Shown here one piece after another: positions 45,368-63,781 of a stretch of 64,000 nt of DNA; the stretch's first letter is position 1; each line of letters starts with the position of its first letter. Location of the stretch: the IMG/VR virus record IMGVR_UViG_3300027969_000045; one strand, written 5' to 3'. The DNA is from a virus. A model generated the notes under the pieces. The model saw nothing but the letters and a program-made list of their open reading frames with translations. It did not search any database and had not been told where the DNA came from. The position numbers and the translations under genes are program-made.

Positions 45368-45395
45368 TATAAATAAGTGTGGTTACTAACCATAC
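45368..45395 (+). promoter_or_regulatory. Late promoter plus short hairpin before the HNH gene
   Basis: TATAAATA 45368-45375, then gtgtggtt-act-aaccatac. Confidence 0.6.
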
Positions 45396-45399
45396 ACAA

Positions 45400-45957
45400 A
45401 TGTTTATAGATACGCACCACATAATACCAAGATCTGAAGGTGGAACTGATGATCCAAAAAATCTTGTTAAACTTCCAAGAAGATTACATCAAGAAGTTCA
45501 TCATCGTAGGTGGTTAGTTGGTGGATCTATTAATGATTTGTATGCTTTCCAAATATTAGGCGGAAATTTATCAGACGATGAATTGAAAAAAATTTATGAA
45601 GATCAAGTTTATAGATGTAAGAGGGATCAAACTAAATTGACTGAATCTAGAATAAATTCTGATAAATGGAAACAATCACATCAAAATGATGAATATAAAC
45701 AAAAGAAAAGAGAACAGAGTATTTTATTAAATAAACTTGGAAAAATTAATTCTAAAGAATCATCAATGCTTATAAGTGAAAAGAAAAAATCGGTGAAAAA
45801 TTACAATTCAAAATTAATTTCAGTTTATGGTAAAATATGGGAGGATGCTTCTAAATGTGTAAGAAGTGGTGGTTCTAATGGATTAAGTTTAAGACAATTG
45901 AGATACCGAGCGAATGAAATTAATTATCCCGATATATTTTATGTGGAGCAAATTTAG
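45400..45957 (+). CDS. Free-standing HNH homing endonuclease
   Basis: THHIIPRSEGGTDDPKNLVKL..RLHQEVH; ATG at 45400 preferred. Confidence 0.85.
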   Translation: MFIDTHHIIPRSEGGTDDPKNLVKLPRRLHQEVHHRRWLVGGSINDLYAFQILGGNLSDDELKKIYEDQVYRCKRDQTKLTESRINSDKWKQSHQNDEYKQKKREQSILLNKLGKINSKESSMLISEKKKSVKNYNSKLISVYGKIWEDASKCVRSGGSNGLSLRQLRYRANEINYPDIFYVEQI

Positions 45958-45959
45958 TT

Positions 45960-46520
45960 ATGGTAATTGATTTAAATTATTTTGTTCAAGTTCATGAAAA
46001 TGCACTGGAAGAAAATGTTTGTGATTTCTTAATTTCATTATTTGATCAAGTTCCAGATAAACACGAGAGAATAGAAAACGAAAGAAAACCAAACTTCACT
46101 CAATTCAATCTTACTGAAAACTGTAAGATCACAGACGAAGTAAATACTGTTCACAATCATTTAATTAAAAAAACTTTTGATTATCGTAATGAATATTATG
46201 ATATGATTGATAAGAGAGTTTTTCCGGAAGAACACGCATTTGAACAATTTCGCATTAAGAGGTACAATAATGATGGCAATGACGAATTTGACACTCACGT
46301 AGATGTTATAGATCACGCAACATCAAGAAGATATTTGGCATTCTTTTGGTATTTGAATGATGTAGAACAGGGAGGAGAAACTAAATTTGCTGATATGATT
46401 ATACAACCAAAGAAAGGGAGTCTTCTTGTATTCCCTCCTCTTTGGATGTTTCCTCACGCAGGATTGCAACCAATAAGCAATCCAAAATATATTTTACACA
46501 CGTATTTGCACTATAAGTAA
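45960..46520 (+). CDS. 2OG-Fe(II) oxygenase
   Basis: HxD (HVD), YLNDVEQGGET, PKKGSLLVFP, distal His. Confidence 0.88.
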   Translation: MVIDLNYFVQVHENALEENVCDFLISLFDQVPDKHERIENERKPNFTQFNLTENCKITDEVNTVHNHLIKKTFDYRNEYYDMIDKRVFPEEHAFEQFRIKRYNNDGNDEFDTHVDVIDHATSRRYLAFFWYLNDVEQGGETKFADMIIQPKKGSLLVFPPLWMFPHAGLQPISNPKYILHTYLHYK

Positions 46521-47152
46521 TGGAAAAAGTCGAAACTACTATTTTAAGAAATTTACTTTTTAATAATGATTATTGTAGAAAAGTATTACCATTTATTAAA
46601 AATGAATATTTTGAAAACCTTCACGAGAAGGTAGTTTTTGAAGAGATTTGTAAGTTTATTGTTGCTTATGATGGTCTTGCGACAAAAGAAGTTCTTTTAA
46701 TTGAAACTGAAAAAAGAACTGATATTACAGAAGATACTTATAAAACAATTTGTGAATATGTTTCTAATTTAGATAATACTCCTGCTGATACGAATTGGGT
46801 TACTGATACTACAGAAAAATGGTGCCGTGATAGAGCAATCTATCTTGCACTTATGGAAAGCATTAAAATTGCTGACGGACAAGATGATAAGAAGAATAGA
46901 GATGCAATTCCAACTATTCTTCAAGAAGCACTTGCTATTTCTTTTGATGACCATATTGGCCACGATTATCTAAACGATTATGAGGACAGATTTAATTCTT
47001 ATCACAGAAAAGAAGATAAAATTTCTTTTGATTTGGAATATTTTAACAAAATTACCAAAGGTGGTATTCCCAATAAAACACTCAATATTGCTTTAGCTGG
47101 TTGCGTTCATCCAGAAACCAGAGTTAAAATCAGATTTAGGAAGATTTCTTGA
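46520..47152 (+). CDS. gp41: Replicative helicase N-terminal fragment (194 aa) fused to a 16-aa N-intein
   Basis: gp41 N-domain up to KTLNIALAG, then CVHPETRVKIRFRKIS*. Confidence 0.93.
   Translation: MEKVETTILRNLLFNNDYCRKVLPFIKNEYFENLHEKVVFEEICKFIVAYDGLATKEVLLIETEKRTDITEDTYKTICEYVSNLDNTPADTNWVTDTTEKWCRDRAIYLALMESIKIADGQDDKKNRDAIPTILQEALAISFDDHIGHDYLNDYEDRFNSYHRKEDKISFDLEYFNKITKGGIPNKTLNIALAGCVHPETRVKIRFRKIS
47102..47152 (+). mobile_element. Split intein N-fragment (atypically short, 16 aa)
   Basis: Cys1 block-A pattern C-V-x-P-x-T-x-V begins exactly inside Walker A. Confidence 0.88.
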
Positions 47153-47804
47153 TTTTGGAGTTTGGTGCTGGTTCTCCAGTTCCAAACTTCCAACCTTCAT
47201 TTAGTTTTATATCAACTTCTTCTGGTGATACTCTTTTCCATCCCTTTGTTCCCGGTAAATGCATTACCTTTTTGCCTTTATGTGCCTTTCCCCCTAATGA
47301 TGCTCGTGTTTTTCTTCCTTCATTAGATGCCCAATAATTGAATTCTGTGGATGCTCTTTGTTTTCCTCCAATTGATGCTCTTTCCTTTCTGCCTTCTTCT
47401 GTACTCCAATAATAGAAATTTTTAGTATTATTGATTAGATATTCTTGTTTTTGTATTTCTATTCCTTTTAGTCTCCAATCTTTTCTTTCTTCTACTGGGA
47501 TTGAGAAGAACCCAATTTGATTATCTCTACAAAATTCTCCTATTATTTTTCTGTGTTGGGGTGTTATATTTGCCCCCAACATTTTCATAGACCTTAAATC
47601 ATTTGGATTTTTATAAATTTTCCAAAGTAAATAATGTGCTATGATATGTTCTCTTACACTTAAATAAGTGAGATTTTCTTCACTATTATCTCCCCCCATA
47701 TGTTTTGGAGTAATATGGTGTTCGTGTATCCCAGAATATTTTTTATAATTGTCTTTTCTTGACCTATTGCTTTCGCATAGATTATAATAGATTTGACTAA
47801 ACAT
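47136..47804 (-). CDS. HNH homing endonuclease (Mob-like), antisense, between the gp41 halves
   Basis: HEHHITPKHMGG.N..ENL..LSVREHIIAH.LLWKIY; purine-rich RBS AGGGGAA before the ATG. Confidence 0.9.
   Translation of the reverse strand: MFSQIYYNLCESNRSRKDNYKKYSGIHEHHITPKHMGGDNSEENLTYLSVREHIIAHYLLWKIYKNPNDLRSMKMLGANITPQHRKIIGEFCRDNQIGFFSIPVEERKDWRLKGIEIQKQEYLINNTKNFYYWSTEEGRKERASIGGKQRASTEFNYWASNEGRKTRASLGGKAHKGKKVMHLPGTKGWKRVSPEEVDIKLNEGWKFGTGEPAPNSKIKKSS
47759..47788 (+). promoter_or_regulatory. Candidate sigma70-like promoter for the IntC-gp41C gene, embedded in the antisense HNH
   Basis: TTGACC-N18-TATAAT, ending 49 nt before the ATG at 47838. Confidence 0.5.
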
Positions 47805-47825
47805 TTCCCCTGTCCCTGCTACTAC

Positions 47826-47833
47826 TATTTATA
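47826..47833 (-). promoter_or_regulatory. Late promoter for the antisense HNH
   Basis: Plus-strand tatttata = minus-strand TATAAATA, 21 nt upstream of the HNH ATG. Confidence 0.75.
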
Positions 47834-47837
47834 CAAA

Positions 47838-48215
47838 ATGTGGATTGAAAAAGAAACATCAATTGCTGAAATCAAAACATTACTTGATAATGGATATGAA
47901 GTGGAGGTCGATTCTCCCGATGGATATGTTCCTGTTAATTTTTTTATTAATAAAGGAATGTACGAAGAATATGAATTGCACTTGTATGATACTACTACTA
48001 AAGTAAAATGTAACGAAAGTCATTTATTTGAAACTAATCAGGGGTGGATTTCTGCTAAATCATTAGAGTATTCTAATTCGTATTGGGAGTTTATTACTAA
48101 AGACGGACTTAGAATTGGTAAGGTTATTAAGACCAATAATCAAATACCTATTGTAGATATTAATGTAAATCATCCAAATCATAGGTATTATACTAATGGG
48201 GTTTCCTCCCATAAT
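47838..48215 (+). mobile_element. Split intein C-fragment (126 aa; carries blocks B, F, G)
   Basis: DSPDGY, block B-like CNESHLF, block F/G VDINV...HRYYTNGVSSHN, +1 Thr. Confidence 0.9.
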
Positions 48216-49010
48216 ACTGGTGTCGGAAAATCTTTGTTTATGTGTCATTTTGCTGCATCAGTTCTTCTTCAAGGAAAAAATGTTTTATACATTACACTTG
48301 AAATGGCAGAGGAAAAGATTGCTGAAAGAATTGACGCAAATCTTCTAAACATTAATATTAAAGACATTGAAACATTACCTAAAATGATGTTTGACTCAAA
48401 AATAAATAGTATTGCGAAGAAGACTCAAGGAACTTTAATTATTAAAGAGTATCCAACTGCTTCCGCACACGCAGGACATTTCAGAGCACTTCTAAATGAA
48501 CTCTCTCTTAAGAAATCATTCAGACCTGATATTATTTTTATTGACTACCTTAATATTTGTGGTTCCTCAAGATATAAGAGTAATTTTTCAGTTAATTCTT
48601 ATTCATATATTAAAGCAATTGCAGAAGAACTTCGTGGTCTTGCAGTTGAAGCAAATGTTCCAATTGTTTCCGCTACTCAAACTACTCGTAGTGGTTTTTC
48701 TAGCTCTGATCCTGATCTTACTGATACTTCTGAATCCTTTGGTCTCCCTGCTACTGCTGATCTTATGTTTGCCCTTATTAGCACAGAAGAGTTGGAACAA
48801 CTCGGGCAGATTATGGTAAAACAATTGAAGAATAGATACAATGACCCAACAATGAATAAAAGATTTGTAGTTGGTATTGACCGTGCGAAGATGAGATTAT
48901 TTGATGTAGAGCAAAGTGCTCAAACCGATATACTTGACTCTGGACAAGAAGAAGAGTATACTTATGAAGAAGATAAACCCAAAAAACAATTCTCTGGATT
49001 TAAATTTTAA
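47838..49010 (+). CDS. gp41: 126-aa C-intein fused to the replicative helicase C-terminal fragment (264 aa)
   Basis: ...HRYYTNGVSSHN|TGVGKSLFMC resumes Walker A; YITLEMAEE, FIDYLNI, SATQTTR, KQLKNRY; ATG at 47838 preferred over the TTG at 47793. Confidence 0.93.
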   Translation: MWIEKETSIAEIKTLLDNGYEVEVDSPDGYVPVNFFINKGMYEEYELHLYDTTTKVKCNESHLFETNQGWISAKSLEYSNSYWEFITKDGLRIGKVIKTNNQIPIVDINVNHPNHRYYTNGVSSHNTGVGKSLFMCHFAASVLLQGKNVLYITLEMAEEKIAERIDANLLNINIKDIETLPKMMFDSKINSIAKKTQGTLIIKEYPTASAHAGHFRALLNELSLKKSFRPDIIFIDYLNICGSSRYKSNFSVNSYSYIKAIAEELRGLAVEANVPIVSATQTTRSGFSSSDPDLTDTSESFGLPATADLMFALISTEELEQLGQIMVKQLKNRYNDPTMNKRFVVGIDRAKMRLFDVEQSAQTDILDSGQEEEYTYEEDKPKKQFSGFKF

Positions 49011-49420
49011 TGACTAAAAAAATTGACTTTTCTAAATATCAAAACTTTGTAGATGCTGTAACTAGTGATGCATCTAAAGACTTTCTTGCTCTTTCTGACC
49101 GTATGGTAGAACTTGATGAGAAAGGTGCTAATATTGAAAGACTTTTGACTGCTGGTGTTGGTATTAATGCCGAAGGTGGTGAATTTCTTGAGATTGTGAA
49201 GAAAATGCTATTTCAGGGAAAACCTTGGAATGACGAAACCCGTACTCACCTGATTAAAGAACTTGGAGATACGATGTGGTATGTTGCCCAAGCCTGTATT
49301 GCTCTTGAAGTTTCTTTTGATGAAGTAATTCAAACCAATATTGACAAGCTAATGAAGCGTTATCCAGAAGGTTATTTTGATGCTTACTACAGCGAAAATC
49401 GTGAAGTGGGAGACATTTGA
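49010..49420 (+). CDS. mazG: MazG-like nucleotide pyrophosphohydrolase
   Basis: AEGGEFLEIVKK, KELGDTMWYVAQ, N..KL.KRYP. Confidence 0.9.
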   Translation: MTKKIDFSKYQNFVDAVTSDASKDFLALSDRMVELDEKGANIERLLTAGVGINAEGGEFLEIVKKMLFQGKPWNDETRTHLIKELGDTMWYVAQACIALEVSFDEVIQTNIDKLMKRYPEGYFDAYYSENREVGDI

Positions 49421-59242: not shown

Positions 59243-60247
59243 ATGAATTTTATTGATCAAAAATACATTGGTCTGGTTTCTTCAAGACTGGAGAAGTTTA
59301 AACAAGTTAAAACTGGACTGTATAATTTTAGATGTGTATATTGTGGGGATTCACAAAAGAATAAAAGCAAGACAAGAGGATATATTTACGGTTATAAGAA
59401 CGATCATAATTACAAGTGTCACAATTGTGGAGTATCTAAATCTTTTACTAATTTTCTAAAAGATATTGACACCACTCTTTATGATCAATATATTATGGAG
59501 AGATATAAGAATGGTTCTACTGGCAAGGGATCTAATACACCGGAACCAAAATTCACCTTTGAAAAACCAAAATTCACAAAAAAAGCATTTGATTTGCCAT
59601 CCATCGCAGAACTAAATAAAGAACATTCGGCAAGAATTTATTTAGAAAACAGAAAAATTCCTCAAGATTTTTTGAGTCAATTATTTTATTGTGAAAAGTT
59701 CAAACAATGGACGAATGAACAAAAAAAAACTTTTGAATCTACAAAATACGATGAACCTAGAATCATCATTCCACTTATCAACAATGGAGAAATATTTGGA
59801 TTTCAGGGTCGTAGTTTAAGTAAGAAACCAAAAGTAAAATACATCACAATTATTCTAGATGAAGATCAACCAAAAATTTATGGATTAAACAGAATTGATT
59901 GGAACAAAACTGTTTATGTTGTAGAAGGTCCATTTGATAGTATGTTTATTGAAAATTCAATTGCGATGGTTGGTGCGGATATTGATAAAATGTTTTTCAT
60001 AGCAAATTTTGAAACCAATTTTGTTATGGTCTATGATAATGAAAAAAGAAATAAAGAGATGGTTGCACGATTAGAAAAAAGCATTGAGATGAAATTTCCT
60101 GTGGTAATTTGGCCAAAAGATTTAAAGGAAAAAGACATTAATGATATTGTATTATCTGGACAAGACGTGGAATCTATGCTAAAATTAAATACTTACCAAG
60201 GATTAGAAGCAAAACTTAAATTTACCAACTGGAAAAAAGTAGCATGA
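59243..60247 (+). CDS. gp61: DNA primase
   Basis: Zinc ribbon CVYCGDS...CHNC, FQGR, TOPRIM EGPFDS, YDNE, KDIND. Confidence 0.95.
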   Translation: MNFIDQKYIGLVSSRLEKFKQVKTGLYNFRCVYCGDSQKNKSKTRGYIYGYKNDHNYKCHNCGVSKSFTNFLKDIDTTLYDQYIMERYKNGSTGKGSNTPEPKFTFEKPKFTKKAFDLPSIAELNKEHSARIYLENRKIPQDFLSQLFYCEKFKQWTNEQKKTFESTKYDEPRIIIPLINNGEIFGFQGRSLSKKPKVKYITIILDEDQPKIYGLNRIDWNKTVYVVEGPFDSMFIENSIAMVGADIDKMFFIANFETNFVMVYDNEKRNKEMVARLEKSIEMKFPVVIWPKDLKEKDINDIVLSGQDVESMLKLNTYQGLEAKLKFTNWKKVA

Positions 60248-61959
60248 GTAACGGCATAAACGTAGTTAAGAGAGATGGGTCTATTGAAAGTTTAGACCTC
60301 AATAAACTTCATTTGATGGTTGAAGAGTCTTGTAAAGACCTTGCTGGAGTGTCTGCATCTCAAGTTGAGATGACTTCTGGAATTCAATTTTATGATGGAA
60401 TTTCAACAAGAGAAGTTCAAGAAATTTTGATCAAATCTGCAGCAGATTTGATTGATTTAGAAAATCCAAATTATCAGTTTGTGGCAGCAAGACTTCTTTT
60501 GTTCTCTGTTCGTAAATCACTTTACGGAAAAATTAAAGATCATCCTACATTCTTTGAACATATTAATAAATGTGTAGATGCAAGTGTTTATGATAAGGAA
60601 ATCTTATCATATTATACGGAAGAAGAACTAAATCGTCTTGGTGATTATATCAAACATAAACGGGATTATCTCTTCACCTATGCCGGTCTTCGTCAAGTTG
60701 TTGATAAATATCTTGTTCAAGATAGAAGCACCGGACAAGTATATGAAACTCCACAGTTCATGTATATGATGATTGCTGCAACAAAATTCTCCCAATATCC
60801 AAAAGAAACTCGTCTTTCATATGTAAAGAGGTACTATGACGCAATATCAAAACACAAAATCAACATCCCAACACCAATTATGGGAGGAGTTAGAACTCCT
60901 TTACGACAATTTGCAAGTTGTGTTCTTGTTGATTCTGATGATACCCTCGATAGCATCGGTCACTCTGATTTGGCTATTTACAAGTACGTTGCTCAAAGGG
61001 CTGGCATCGGTATCAATGCGGGCAGAATACGTGGTATCAATTCTAAAATCAGAGGCGGAGAAGTACAACACACAGGTGTTATTCCCTTCCTTAAAAAGTT
61101 TGAAGCAACTGTCAGAAGTTGCACTCAAAACGGTATCAGAGGTGGTTCAGCAACTGTTCACTTTCCAATCTGGCACCAAGAAATAGAAGACATTATTGTT
61201 CTGAAAAATAATAAGGGAACTGAAGATAATCGTGTTCGTAAGTTAGACTATTCTATTCAAATCAGCAAAATCTTCTATGAACGATTTATCCGCAACGAAG
61301 AAATCACACTCTTCTCTCCCCACGATGTTCCTGGTCTTTATGATGCTTTTGGCACTGATGGATTTGACGACCTTTATGTGGGTTATGAACGAAATGAATC
61401 TATTCCAAGAAAAACTATCGGTGCTCAAGAACTCTTTCTGGACCTTCTAAAAGAACGTGCAGAAACAGGTCGTATTTATATTATGAATATTGACCATTGT
61501 AATTCTCATAGTTCTTTTCTTGATAAGGTTTCAATGAGTAACCTTTGTGTTGCTGGTGATACAAAGATTAAAATCAAATACCCAAAAGCAATATATGATG
61601 ATATTGGAGAGATTTATGATTGGAAAGTTTATGAAGAAGAAATTGAGATTGGAGATCTGGATGAATATATTAGTTCCAGAGAAATTAGAGTTATGTCTTA
61701 TAAAGTAAGTGATAATGATCCTTGTGAGGATGTTCCTCAAATAGAAGTTCTTTCTTATAATACAGAAACTAATCAACAAGAATGGGCACCTATTACAGCA
61801 TTTGCCGAAACATCACCAAAAGCAAAGGTAATGAGAATTACTGATGAAGAAAGTGGTAAGAGTATTGTAGTGACACCAGAGCATAAAGTATTCACAAAAA
61901 ATCGTGGATATGTAATGGCAAAAGACCTAACCGAAACTGATGAGTTGGCAATCAACTAA
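60244..61959 (+). CDS. nrdA: Class Ia ribonucleotide reductase alpha N-fragment (434 aa) fused to a 137-aa N-intein
   Basis: ATP cone VVKRDG, PTPIMGG, FASCVL, ends SMSNL|CVAGDT... Confidence 0.95.
   Translation: MSNGINVVKRDGSIESLDLNKLHLMVEESCKDLAGVSASQVEMTSGIQFYDGISTREVQEILIKSAADLIDLENPNYQFVAARLLLFSVRKSLYGKIKDHPTFFEHINKCVDASVYDKEILSYYTEEELNRLGDYIKHKRDYLFTYAGLRQVVDKYLVQDRSTGQVYETPQFMYMMIAATKFSQYPKETRLSYVKRYYDAISKHKINIPTPIMGGVRTPLRQFASCVLVDSDDTLDSIGHSDLAIYKYVAQRAGIGINAGRIRGINSKIRGGEVQHTGVIPFLKKFEATVRSCTQNGIRGGSATVHFPIWHQEIEDIIVLKNNKGTEDNRVRKLDYSIQISKIFYERFIRNEEITLFSPHDVPGLYDAFGTDGFDDLYVGYERNESIPRKTIGAQELFLDLLKERAETGRIYIMNIDHCNSHSSFLDKVSMSNLCVAGDTKIKIKYPKAIYDDIGEIYDWKVYEEEIEIGDLDEYISSREIRVMSYKVSDNDPCEDVPQIEVLSYNTETNQQEWAPITAFAETSPKAKVMRITDEESGKSIVVTPEHKVFTKNRGYVMAKDLTETDELAIN
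61546..61959 (+). mobile_element. Split intein N-fragment (137 aa)
   Basis: CVAGDTKI block A; VTPEHKVFT block B (TxxH); GYVMAKDL. Confidence 0.93.
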
Positions 61960-61963
61960 TATG

Positions 61964-62017
61964 ATAGGAAGTGTAATTTCTATATTTTATAAATAGTTAT
62001 GAGATTACACTTCCTAT
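61964..62017 (+). promoter_or_regulatory. 17-bp hairpin with the late promoter in its loop, before the GIY-YIG gene
   Basis: ataggaagtgtaatttc / gagattacacttcctat (one G-U); TATAAATA 61988-61995; ATG at 62019. Confidence 0.8.
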
Positions 62018-62018
62018 A

Positions 62019-62693
62019 ATGAAAACATATATTGTTTATAAAATTACCAATAAGAATAACGGAAAATCTTACATAGGAAAAACTGAATACTCATTAGAAC
62101 ATCGTTGGAATCGTCATTTATCATCGGCAAGAAATGGTTCTAAATTTAGATTTCATTCTGCTATTAGAAAATATGGTGAAGATTGTTGGGACTTATCTGT
62201 GATTGAAACCTATCTGACCGAAGATGAAAACTTTATTAACGAAAAAGAAACTCACTTTATTAAACTCTTTGAAAGTGATACTAAAAAAGGTTATAATGCT
62301 ACTTCAGGTGGAACTGGTGGATGGATGCTTCCCAAATGCTCTCCGGAGGTTCAGGAAGAATGGAGAAACAATATTTCTATAAGAACTACTGGTTCCAACA
62401 ATCCAAACCATTCTGGATATACTGATGAGCAACTTATAGAAATAGGTGTAAAGTTTGTTAAAAAATTTGGATTTATTGGTGGTAGAACGAGAATAGTTGA
62501 TTTTGCCAGTAATGAATTGAATATAAAGTTTCCAAAACATTTTTCTAAAAATAGATTTGGAGGAAACCATCAAAACTTTTATAAATCTATTGAAGAACAG
62601 ACTGGATTGGTGTATAATTCATATTATAGAGACGAAACTCAAAGAACACTTGCTAAACAACTTTTAGAACAAAACAGGAGAAAAAAATGCTAA
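62019..62693 (+). CDS. GIY-YIG homing endonuclease between the nrdA halves
   Basis: IVYKITN..NGKSYIGKT, R..RH, E, GYN..GG. Confidence 0.9.
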   Translation: MKTYIVYKITNKNNGKSYIGKTEYSLEHRWNRHLSSARNGSKFRFHSAIRKYGEDCWDLSVIETYLTEDENFINEKETHFIKLFESDTKKGYNATSGGTGGWMLPKCSPEVQEEWRNNISIRTTGSNNPNHSGYTDEQLIEIGVKFVKKFGFIGGRTRIVDFASNELNIKFPKHFSKNRFGGNHQNFYKSIEEQTGLVYNSYYRDETQRTLAKQLLEQNRRKKC

Positions 62694-62785
62694 AGATTGA
62701 ATATCTTGAAGAAGAAATTCCAGTTTATGATATTACTGTAGAAGGAACACACAATTTCTTTGCAAATAATATTCTGGTCCATAAT
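62687..62785 (+). mobile_element. Split intein C-fragment (33 aa)
   Basis: VYDITVEGTHNFFANNILVHN blocks F/G, +1 Cys. Confidence 0.93.
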
Positions 62786-63781
62786 TGCCAAGAGATTACA
62801 CTTCCCACCAAACCTCTTCAACATATTGATGATCCAGATGGAGAGATTGCTCTCTGTATTCTTTCTGCAATCAATGTGGGTAAAGTTAAGGATGATAGTG
62901 AATTTGAAGAACTTTGTGATTTGGCTGTTCGTGGGTTGGAAGAACTCATTGATTATCAGCAATATCCAATAGTTGCTGCTGAAAAATCAACAAAAGCACG
63001 TAGATCTCTTGGTGTTGGATTTATTGGTTTGGCACATTATCTTGCTAAACTTGGTTTTGATTATGATTCTCAAGAAGCATGGGATGCAGTTCATAGTCTT
63101 TCTGAATCATTCCAATATTTCTTACTCAAATCTTCTAATCAGATTGCCAAAGAAAAAGGTGCTTGTGAATATTTCAATCGCACAAAGTATTCCCAAGGAA
63201 TTCTTCCAATTGATACATACAAAAAGGATGTTGATGAACTGTCAAATCCAACTCTTCAACACGATTGGGAAACACTTAGAGAAGATATAAAACTGTATGG
63301 TCTTAGACACTCCACACTATCCGCACAGATGCCCTCTGAGAGCAGTTCAGTCGTCTCTAATGCAACTAATGGAATTGAACCCCCTAGAGGTTATTTGTCC
63401 GTCAAACAGTCTAAAAAAGGTCCTCTCAAGCAAATTGTTCCACAGTTTCAAAGTCTTAAAAACAATTATACGCTTCTTTGGGATATGCCTAGCAATCGTG
63501 GTTATATTAATATTGTTGCAGTTATGCAAAAATTCTTTGATCAAGCGATTTCTGGAAACTGGTCATATAATCCGGAGAATTATCCCGATAATGAAGTTCC
63601 TGTTAGCGTAATGGCACAAGATATGCTCACTTGCTTTAAGTATGGGCACAAAACAGCATATTATCAGAATACTTATGATGGTAAGTCCGATGAAATCAAA
63701 GAAGAAAAATCCAACCTTGACAGTTTAGTGCAGGACATACTAAACTCTAATGAAGATGACTGTGAGAGTTGTAAAATTTGA
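62687..63781 (+). CDS. nrdA: 33-aa C-intein fused to the ribonucleotide reductase alpha C-fragment (331 aa)
   Basis: ...NNILVHN|CQEITLP; ALCILSA, MPSESSS, KTAYY, C-terminal CESC; AGGAG RBS at 62676-62680. Confidence 0.95.
   Translation: MLKIEYLEEEIPVYDITVEGTHNFFANNILVHNCQEITLPTKPLQHIDDPDGEIALCILSAINVGKVKDDSEFEELCDLAVRGLEELIDYQQYPIVAAEKSTKARRSLGVGFIGLAHYLAKLGFDYDSQEAWDAVHSLSESFQYFLLKSSNQIAKEKGACEYFNRTKYSQGILPIDTYKKDVDELSNPTLQHDWETLREDIKLYGLRHSTLSAQMPSESSSVVSNATNGIEPPRGYLSVKQSKKGPLKQIVPQFQSLKNNYTLLWDMPSNRGYINIVAVMQKFFDQAISGNWSYNPENYPDNEVPVSVMAQDMLTCFKYGHKTAYYQNTYDGKSDEIKEEKSNLDSLVQDILNSNEDDCESCKI

Follow-up and report, generated by a model that had tools for sequence, protein, structure and literature searches.

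The window, the whole stretch of 64,000 nucleotides that was analyzed, belongs to an uncultured T4-like cyanophage, in which the replicative helicase gp41 is encoded in two genes. We consider it highly probable that this is a fractured gp41 gene carrying an intein of the VidaL family, that the intein was split by an antisense HNH cassette, that the two gene products are trans-spliced, and that intein and cassette form a composite mobile element. The features of the locus are as follows:

46520..47152, plus strand: gp41 N-gene ORF, 210 aa, ending ...LNIALAG-CVHPETRVKIRFRKIS-stop
46520..47101, plus strand: N-extein of gp41 (DnaB-like replicative helicase), 194 aa, ending ...NKTLNIALAG, colinear with S-SCSM1 gp41
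47102..47149, plus strand: IntN, 16 aa, CVHPETRVKIRFRKIS, with Cys1 as the first nucleophile; TGA stop at 47150..47152
47136..47804, minus strand (antisense to gp41): predicted free-standing homing-endonuclease gene of the HNH type, 222 aa
47152..47839, no strand assigned: inserted homing-endonuclease cassette, 688 nt between the gp41 halves, delimited by comparison with the contiguous allele
47759..47788, plus strand: sigma-70-like promoter candidate (TTGACC, 18 nt, TATAAT; 11/12 matches)
47826..47833, minus strand: TATAAATA, late-promoter motif of the T4 type, with a GGGGA run resembling a ribosome-binding site after it and the HNH ATG 21 nt downstream
47838..48215, plus strand: IntC, 126 aa, MWIEKETS...HRYYTNGVSSHN, with blocks B (CNESH), F (VDINV), and G (SSHN)
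48216..49010, plus strand: gp41 C-extein, 264 aa plus stop (49008..49010); its first residue is Thr+1, within Walker A (TGVGKS)

According to the first-pass annotation, gp41 stops at LNIALAG followed by a 16-aa piece and restarts as MWIEKETS...; these limits proved to be exact, with an interval of 688 nt. Removal of the 16-aa and 126-aa pieces had been said to restore the P-loop and to give a 458-aa helicase, and this agreed with our data: the exteins of 194 and 264 aa sum up to 458 aa and were both colinear with gp41 of Synechococcus phage S-SCSM1, which has no interruption. In the alignment with this protein, the junction was exact (NKTLNIALAG/TGVGKSLFMCH), zero residues being gained or lost. 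Both extein halves were full length and free of frameshifts, and their protein identity to intact gp41 was 64–85%. The Pfam DnaB_C domain was matched from residue 127 of the IntC-plus-extein protein (E 5.5e-18), and the N-extein gave a weak match to the Pfam DnaB N-terminal domain. Neither a second gp41 nor a second copy of the helicase or the endonuclease was found within the 64-kb window. A TTG at position 47793 was rejected as the start of the C-gene in favor of the conserved ATG at 47838, because the in-frame sequence 5' of MWIEKE differs among loci and a stop codon is located two codons upstream in two of them (L065, L066). No Shine–Dalgarno sequence was seen before the IntC ATG upon sequence inspection.

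The following residues characteristic of class 1 inteins were present: the N-terminal nucleophile, the block B His, the block F Asp, the His-Asn pair, and the +1 nucleophile. Cys1 (codon 47102..47104) is located directly 3' of ...ALAG and was kept in 67 of the 67 related loci with a visible IntN. IntC residues His62, Trp70, Asp107, His125, and Asn126 were invariant in family alignments of 42 and 58 rows, the block B His, the block F Asp, and the terminal His-Asn being invariant family-wide. Two features had earlier been regarded as oddities, and neither was. Thr+1 (codon 48216..48218) is typical of the clade, being found at every related gp41 locus, and is a recognized class 1 nucleophile (PMC7765530); the +1 residue tracks the host P-loop and is Thr (rarely Ser) in gp41-type, Ser in UvsX-type, and Cys in other hosts. 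The replacement of the block B Thr by Asn (NxxH) extends to the whole family, and this Thr is also missing in the experimentally active VidaL. The suggested charge complementarity was confirmed by counting: basic and acidic residues number five and one in IntN, and two and eight over the N-terminal 30 positions of IntC. Such opposite charges of IntN and the N-terminus of IntC fit electrostatic pairing of the pieces.

The resemblance to VidaL, proposed in the first-pass annotation, was supported by both sequence (E 1.1e-11) and structure (TM 0.85–0.90). The former value was obtained in a sequence search with the window IntC against PDB 6vgv (VidaL); the whole contiguous allele matched VidaL in HMMER with an E of 1.8e-13, and the split point was aligned residue for residue. 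Residue 16 of both IntN pieces corresponded to residue 16 of the contiguous allele, and the first Met of VidaL IntC corresponded to residue 17; the atypical split with a 16-aa IntN claimed for the window is thus the break of VidaL, 16 residues and then Met. The AlphaFold model of the window IntC (pLDDT 93.8) had 6vgv as its best PDB match (TM 0.85, rmsd 2.1 Å). The complete domain was represented by a model of the natural contiguous allele of locus L058, rather than by the two chains of the window together; IntC of this allele is 69% identical to that of the window, and its IntN differs in 1 of 16 residues. This model (pLDDT 93.3) was superimposed on 6vgv with TM values of 0.86/0.90 and an rmsd of 1.5 Å. 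In the structural matches, identity to VidaL was 29–30%. The split falls in a loop between the strands at residues 12–18 and 24–29 of the L058 model. All top PDB structure matches of the models (pLDDT 93–94) were inteins, with 6vgv in first place, and the fold was that of the Hint domain (horseshoe), in the window IntC as well as in its contiguous relative.

IntC had no matches in Pfam and PHROGs, its homology being detected only against PDB sequences and a large protein library. Ankyrin/DARPin matches to IntC residues 10–47 were set aside as a motif coincidence (a helix followed by DxxGxxP), since these residues belong to the Hint domain in VidaL as well as in the two models. Data on VidaL were taken from the PDB chain alignment and from PMC13014065. 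The identification of the pieces as an intein was upheld by the invariant catalytic residues and the Hint-domain models, and the expectation of a new member of a known family was of the right class, the intein being a relative of the characterized VidaL. On the evidence of alignments and models, the two pieces together make up a class 1 intein that belongs to the VidaL family and has a VidaL-type atypical split at the S1 site.

The origin of the break was apparent from comparison with the contiguous allele, which reads TCT TGG TGG ATT where the window reads TCT TG[A...AT]G TGG ATT; in the stop codon, the A therefore comes from the insert, as do the A and T of the start codon. The cassette boundaries are ambiguous by one or two shared bases. 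Judging from this comparison, the break in the intein was made by insertion of the free-standing antisense HNH gene. The 3' end of this gene overlaps IntN, covering its last four codons and the stop (the last 17 nt of the N-gene). The HNH protein matched PHROG 655 'homing endonuclease' (E 2.2e-15) with a visible HEHH...N...H motif; its score against Pfam HNH was 16.7 bits, under the cutoff of 21.4. HNH was the longest ORF of the gap in 52 of 67 related loci. The presence of an antisense HNH gene in the interval was absent from the first-pass annotation.

Two candidate promoters are associated with the cassette. The TATAAATA motif (or TATATAAATA) was retained at the same spot in nearly all split loci; since its enrichment across the window was not significant (14 found vs. 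8.9 expected), we regard it as a putative late promoter. The other HNH gene of the window also possesses a late-promoter motif (45368..45375). The sigma-70-like candidate is located ~50 nt 5' of the IntC start, inside the antisense HNH coding region, and was kept in most split loci. Synonymous diversity of the HNH codons was 0–0.17 under its two hexamers versus 0.14–0.50 in the spacer codons, which is suggestive, though only that, of a promoter for IntC. Unlike the case reported by Dassa et al., no hairpin that would sequester the ribosome-binding site was predicted 5' of the HNH gene (z = +1.07).

Related loci were abundant in IMG/VR. The ...SSHN/TGVGKS junction was found in 78 of 80 of them, and this recurrence indicates that the split arrangement is not due to chance. 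Both halves were visible in 67 loci, including 61 split and 6 contiguous ones; among the split loci, 58 carried the cassette and 3 had no endonuclease. In the contiguous alleles (L046, L056, L058–L061), IntN, with one K/R change, is directly joined to the rest of the intein. Gaps of 684–689 nt recurred in many loci, while some were rearranged and had gaps of 1.1–1.6 kb; the length of the IntN tail varied from 14 to 20 aa. Locus L058 contained both this intein and one of the kind described for gp41 by Dassa et al. within one gp41. Among 50,697 phage records, no gp41 copy of the intein was found in cultured phages; only distant relatives (identity of 33% at most) were present there, in other genes.

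Median dN/dS values were 0.26 for IntC, 0.14 for HNH, and 0.10–0.18 for the exteins, as calculated from codon alignments in which the pairs are not independent. At the level of these ratios, the intein is under purifying selection. Contiguous and split alleles occurred together in one near-identical clade (97% support). Contiguous L058 and split L062/L031 had N-exteins 74–78% identical right up to the junction, IntN 100% identical, and IntC 97–99% identical; identity of the C-extein was 90–96% in the first 100 nt and 67–80% afterwards. Intein DNA that is 97–100% identical between helicase genes of ~75% identity is a signature of homing. The comparison of loci indicates that the intein element is real, mobile, and common in viral metagenomes.

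We propose that a mini-intein of class 1, belonging to the VidaL family, was located in the Walker A motif, between its Gly and Thr (AG/TGVGKS), and that the HNH cassette later entered, in antisense orientation, at codon 17 of the intein gene, giving rise to a stop after intein residue 16 and to a new ATG. Due to this stop and start, two proteins would be produced: the N-extein with the 16-aa IntN, and the 126-aa IntC with the C-extein. The basic IntN would dock as the missing N-terminal strands on the acidic, near-complete Hint domain of IntC. Splicing would then proceed by the standard class 1 route, i.e., Cys1 thioester formation, attack by Thr+1, cyclization of the terminal Asn, and an O-to-N shift, which would restore the P-loop and yield the 458-aa helicase; the helicase would be made only by trans-splicing. 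The intein and the HNH gene, the latter presumably supplying the nuclease behind the mobility, would constitute a composite mobile element homing between diverged gp41 genes.

The halves of the helicase could instead associate non-covalently, with the intein pieces as a mere dimerization handle, in the manner of intein-less fractured phage genes like Aeh1 nrdA. In favor of such an association, Thr+1 tends to react more slowly as a nucleophile than Cys or Ser. Fractured phage genes functional without splicing are also on record (Dassa et al. 2009, PMC2677866). However, the P-loop would then remain broken by 142 foreign residues, and Cys1, the block B His, the block F Asp, the His-Asn pair, and Thr+1 would hardly be expected to be kept, as they are, in all related loci; the purifying selection on the intein and the splicing of the homologous VidaL also make this explanation very unlikely. 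Even less credible is a dead helicase left behind by endonuclease invasion, with replication performed by another helicase. The larger, rearranged gaps of some related loci would agree with such decay, but the exteins are intact and similar to uninterrupted gp41 along their whole length, dN/dS values are low in both exteins and intein, the catalytic residues are conserved, the same arrangement recurs in dozens of diverged phage contigs, and the window offers no other gp41 to take over.

Phage HNH genes frequently reside within group I introns, and the interval might accordingly be removed as RNA, or else skipped by ribosomal bypassing. No group I/II intron or other Rfam match was found in 46400..49100 on either strand, and the HNH gene is antisense. 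Moreover, the flanking 16 and 126 residues form a Hint domain that is contiguous in natural alleles, and loss of the 688 nt alone would only produce a contiguous intein, still requiring protein splicing; we therefore assign almost no probability to removal at the RNA level. Equally negligible is the possibility that the interruption arose from faulty assembly or sequencing, which is refuted by the recurrence of the same architecture in over 50 independent contigs from metagenomes of many samples.

Besides the trans-spliced composite element, we considered a more far-reaching and considerably more doubtful proposal, namely that the HNH cassette is an independent mobile element with codon 17 of the intein gene as its target and with a divergent promoter pair. 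If so, it would be the choice of endonuclease target, and not folding constraints, that fixes the S1 split site of natural inteins with a short IntN, and contiguous alleles would have turned split, and back, repeatedly. With the cassette would come two promoters, one late and serving the nuclease, the other sigma-70-like and serving the C-half of the helicase; the halves would be timed differently, and helicase assembly would consequently hinge on the overlap of their expression.

Few natural split inteins have an IntN of peptide size; they are used for semisynthesis and live-cell labelling, and VidaL is the reference example. The locus changes nothing known in kind. The element occurs commonly in public viral metagenomes, and for VidaL, its closest relative, a crystal structure has been solved and applications have been published. 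The clade comprises dozens of natural variants of the same 16-aa architecture with only ~30% identity to VidaL, having a Cys1/Thr+1 pair, a Gly/Thr-Gly extein context, and matched contiguous and endonuclease-free alleles. It thus provides material for developing orthogonal pairs and for understanding why a 16-residue fragment suffices. For phage biology, every proposed stage of gene fracture is represented at this single site, from the contiguous intein through invasion by the endonuclease to its loss, and the locus family also displays clear homing tracts.

The intein of the window shares with VidaL its class (class 1), a natural atypical split after strand beta2 (S1 site) that leaves an IntN of 16 aa, Cys1, the HxNHRYY motif, terminal SHN, the lack of the block B Thr, and insertion into a P-loop. 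The crystallized VidaL chain differs in running into Ser-Gly after the intein, whereas the window member has Thr+1 in the gp41 P-loop; the Ser-Gly continuation fits a UvsX-type P-loop (SGKS), which is seen in the nearest relatives of VidaL. The Lake Vida set reportedly also included 'T4Lh' (T4-like helicase) inteins; if so, the present host and site have already been published. T4Lh or Lake Vida inteins had no match in the literature searched, a body of texts to which the primary VidaL papers do not belong. For VidaL (PDB 6vgv/6vgw), PMC13014065 cites Burton et al. 2020 and Neugebauer et al. 2017. The same source describes the S1 split site and gives, for VidaL with its IntN likewise of 16 aa, a splicing half-time of ~1 min at 37 °C; for the pair of the window, we infer both splicing and its rate.

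Other natural split inteins with a short IntN are PolB16 OarG (15 aa), AceL TerL (25 aa), and GOS TerL (PMC10189870, PMC13014065). They share with the window's intein an IntN of synthetic size, a long IntC, and an origin from phages or metagenomes, and PolB16 is also split at S1. They differ in intein lineage and host protein: PolB16, which was ranked far below VidaL by Foldseek, has Ser1 and Ser+1, and the TerL inteins are split after helix alpha1 (S2 site), unlike the S1 site of the window. An intein of the same family, 31.5% identical to the window IntC, is carried by the fractured UvsX of Pseudomonas jumbo phage PA5oct and its relatives; its 17-residue IntN-type piece, CLPETAKVKIRLSKKQS, lies in a P-loop and is followed by a stop, and there is an ORF between the halves. 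The differences are the UvsX host with Ser+1 and an intervening ORF of 477 aa located on the same strand. The PA5oct record annotates the N-part of UvsX as a hypothetical protein.

Among the fractured genes of Dassa et al. 2009, with the gp41-1 to gp41-9, NrdA, NrdJ, and IMPDH split inteins (PMC2677866), the same organization is found: an essential phage replication gene is divided into two same-strand halves, which bear the split-intein pieces and flank a homing-endonuclease gene. Adjacent same-strand halves with an endonuclease between them, by which a fractured gene is defined there, were present at the window locus. Endonuclease-free alleles, the cyanophage gp41 host, and a late-promoter motif at the endonuclease gene are further likenesses. 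The inteins differ in being canonically split, with a long IntN and an IntC of ~35 aa, and gp41-1 to gp41-7 are located elsewhere in gp41; the endonucleases are of the GIY-YIG or Vsr-like types, and that of the window is of the HNH type and antisense. Fracture of genes by HNH endonucleases was merely suggested by Dassa et al. 2009 (PMC2677866); at the present locus, a predicted HNH endonuclease gene does fracture its host, as they considered possible.

In the window, gp41 was encoded by two plus-strand open reading frames, the gap between which contained a further gene:

46520..47152, plus strand: gp41 N-gene, with 194 DnaB-like helicase residues (ending in ...NKTLNIALAG) and the IntN
47136..47804, minus strand: putative HNH homing-endonuclease gene of 222 aa (PHROG 655 'homing endonuclease', E 2.2e-15; weak Pfam HNH match)
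ATG at 47838, stop at 49010, plus strand: gene of the IntC and gp41 C-extein

Directly after NKTLNIALAG, the N-gene continued with CVHPETRVKIRFRKIS and a TGA stop. The first 126 residues of the C-gene (MWIEKETS...HRYYTNGVSSHN) ended at 48215 and were followed by TGVGKSLFMCH..., the Pfam DnaB_C match starting exactly at the Thr after the IntC. Against gp41 of Synechococcus phage S-SCSM1, which is uninterrupted, the extein parts aligned edge to edge with no residue gained or lost (NKTLNIALAG/TGVGKSLFMCH), and the joined helicase had 194 + 264 = 458 aa. All cultured cyanophage relatives found by blastn had an unbroken gp41. Therefore, given this ORF layout, the DnaB_C start, the exact junction, the 458-aa sum and the one-piece cyanophage genes, the first-pass annotation had described the fracture of gp41 accurately; the minus-strand 222-aa ORF in the gap had been left unmentioned.

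The window IntC matched the VidaL chain (PDB 6vgv/6vgw) over its whole length with an E value of 1.1e-11, which bears out a resemblance noted earlier; the Spl DnaX and gp41-1 inteins were matched more weakly. The IMG/VR scan revealed 80 related loci at 58–93% identity. In six of them (L046, L056, and L058–L061), the 16 IntN residues of the window, apart from one K/R exchange, ran into W-WIEKE... without a stop; each of these loci encodes a natural contiguous mini-intein of 142 aa at this position of gp41. The contiguous allele aligned with VidaL end to end (E 1.8e-13), and residue 16 of the VidaL IntN and the first Met of its IntC fell on contiguous-allele residues 16 and 17. The window break therefore occupies the homologous position, in agreement with the earlier proposal of an atypical split with a 16-aa IntN. 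The IntN of VidaL has 16 aa, the split lies directly after strand beta2, and the splicing half-time is about one minute at 37 °C (PMC13014065).

The AlphaFold2 model of the contiguous allele (pLDDT 93.3, pTM 0.86) placed the break in the loop between strands at residues 12–18 and 24–29. Its top Foldseek match was 6vgv (E 1.4e-12, TM 0.86/0.90, rmsd 1.5 Å, 30% identity), followed by other inteins only. The window IntC modelled alone (pLDDT 93.8) also had 6vgv as its best match (TM 0.85, rmsd 2.1 Å, 29% identity). Alignments of the family with 42 and 58 rows showed no variation at the block B His, a Trp, the block F Asp, or the final His-Asn. The IntN tail varied from 14 to 20 residues among related loci, which fits a tolerant loop. 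IntC residues 10–47 (window 47865..47980, EIKTLLDNGYEVEVDSPDGYVPVNFFINKG) resembled the ankyrin-repeat consensus and matched DARPin/ankyrin entries in the PDB and, in several stretches, long repeat proteins of the library searched; since the models show these residues as the helix and hairpin belonging to the Hint domain, the matches look coincidental.

Thr+1 and the NxxH of block B, previously regarded as unusual, are characters of the clade and no anomalies of the window member: HN/TGVGKS was found in each of the 78 related loci in which the end of IntC could be read, and the block B consensus of the family was CNxxH (A-F-N-H in VidaL). Among 244 matches (E up to 0.001) from a search of 1.84 billion representative proteins, the +1 residue tracked the host P-loop: gp41-type hosts had Thr (rarely Ser) before [GN]VGKS, UvsX-type hosts had Ser before GKSY, and the others had Cys. 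Thr+1 is among the standard nucleophiles of class 1 inteins (PMC7765530). In library proteins P0047, P0064, P0084, P0090, P0096, and about 25 others, the IntC-like domain began 35–80 residues into the protein, after a helical-looking extension without a Cys1-type IntN; these may be split inteins that carry an extra N-terminal module, or their starts may have been called wrongly.

The codons at the break were ...AAG ATT TCT TGG TGG ATT GAA... in the contiguous allele and ...AAG ATT TCT TG[A ... 688 nt ... AT]G TGG ATT GAA... in the window; therefore, the third base of TGA and the first two of ATG come from the insert. The last four codons and the stop of the antisense HNH ORF extended into the IntN codons. 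Both halves were visible in 67 related loci. The antisense HNH ORF was the longest gap ORF in 52 of them, with gaps typically of 684–689 nt, like that of the window; six had longer gaps in which a plus-strand ORF was the longest, six had a contiguous intein, and three were split with the endonuclease lost (stop-to-start distance of 5 nt in L069 and L070, overlap as TAATG in L006). The gaps of L034, L037, L039, and L040 (1037–1575 nt) additionally held a plus-strand ORF of 257–278 aa beginning with M[ND][SA]QE[IF]R.LQEAYMEVVE; a similar gene occurs elsewhere in these phages (downstream in L079), which suggests extra cargo captured in the gap.

We infer expression signals around the HNH gene and the IntC start from the following features:

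47833..47826, minus strand: TATAAATA motif, 21 nt before the HNH start and with a GGGGA run after it
47759..47788, plus strand: promoter candidate TTGACC-18-TATAAT with 11/12 matches; the IntC start lies about 50 nt downstream

The TATAAATA motif was conserved at this position in almost every split locus; it was not enriched over the window as a whole, and no hairpin was predicted upstream of the HNH gene. The promoter candidate lies within the HNH coding region, where synonymous diversity was 0–0.17 under the two hexamers versus 0.14–0.50 in the spacer codons; this low diversity, over few codons, is suggestive of a promoter. A second free-standing HNH gene of the window (45379..45957, 192 aa; PHROG 655, E 8e-16), flanked by uvsX and a 2OG-Fe(II) oxygenase gene, had TATAAATA at 45368..45375, with 3 nt separating the motif from the GTG start of the gene (45379).

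As for removal of the interval at the RNA level, no intron or other RNA family matched the region, and loss of the insert from the RNA would leave the intein in place. An artefactual stop and restart is excluded by the recurrence of the arrangement in many samples. Median dN/dS over sequence pairs, which are not independent of one another, was 0.14 for the HNH gene, 0.26 for IntC, and 0.10 and 0.18 for the exteins on either side. The gene is unlikely to be dead, because the exteins are intact and under selection and the catalytic residues are kept. Non-covalent assembly of the two helicase halves is likewise improbable, since the P-loop itself is broken and no splicing residue has been lost.

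In a phylogeny of 89 intein sequences of the gp41 type, split and contiguous forms were interspersed: the best tree needed 15 changes of state, at least two of them forced by well-supported branches, and one clade (97% support) united three contiguous and three split alleles, almost identical. At the DNA level, the identity of contiguous L058 to split L062 and L031 was 74–78% over the N-extein as far as the junction, 100% over IntN, 97–99% over IntC, and 90–96% over the first 100 nt of the C-extein, falling to 67–80% beyond, as would be expected if homing had been recent and the co-conversion tract short. L026, which carries the cassette (the endonuclease insert), was 92–99% identical to L058 in every segment compared. 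Thus, the intein, with or without the endonuclease gene, is spreading among diverged helicase genes; the nuclease responsible is something we infer.

Ribonucleotide reductase NrdA of the window was also fractured, by a canonical split intein (60244..63781):

60244..61959: NrdA N-gene, ending with about 137 aa of IntN that starts CVAGDTKIKIKY
62019..62693, same strand as the NrdA halves: GIY-YIG endonuclease gene
62687..63781: NrdA C-gene, opening with a 33-aa IntC ending in VHN, then Cys+1

Both halves had Pfam matches to the RNR barrel and to intein splicing. One gp41 gene on an IMG/VR contig (L058, 2368-4130) carried two inteins, the contiguous VidaL-type one in the P-loop and a classic gp41-1 split intein starting further on, at SGY/CLDLKTQVQTPQGMKE...; the window gp41 lacks the latter and is continuous there (TRSGF-SSSD).

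The split intein of the window is of practical and not of conceptual interest, its kind being already known. The Lake Vida set, the source of VidaL, reportedly also included 'T4-like helicase' inteins. In the cultured Pseudomonas jumbo phage PA5oct (L082:60-3066 = NC_071039.1 134722-137728) and about ten close relatives, UvsX too is fractured, by an intein of the family to which that of the window belongs. In PA5oct, the UvsX N-part is an 81-aa ORF ending ...FAGESG-CLPETAKVKIRLSKKQS-stop, called a hypothetical protein in the record; a 477-aa ORF on the same strand comes next, then MEYIEKE...FSSHN/SGKSY. Compared with VidaL, the window locus has every family feature testable here and, from sequence and models, would work alike. 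It shares its gene arrangement with the 'fractured genes' of Dassa et al. (PMC2677866) but differs from them in its antisense HNH endonuclease and atypical split site.
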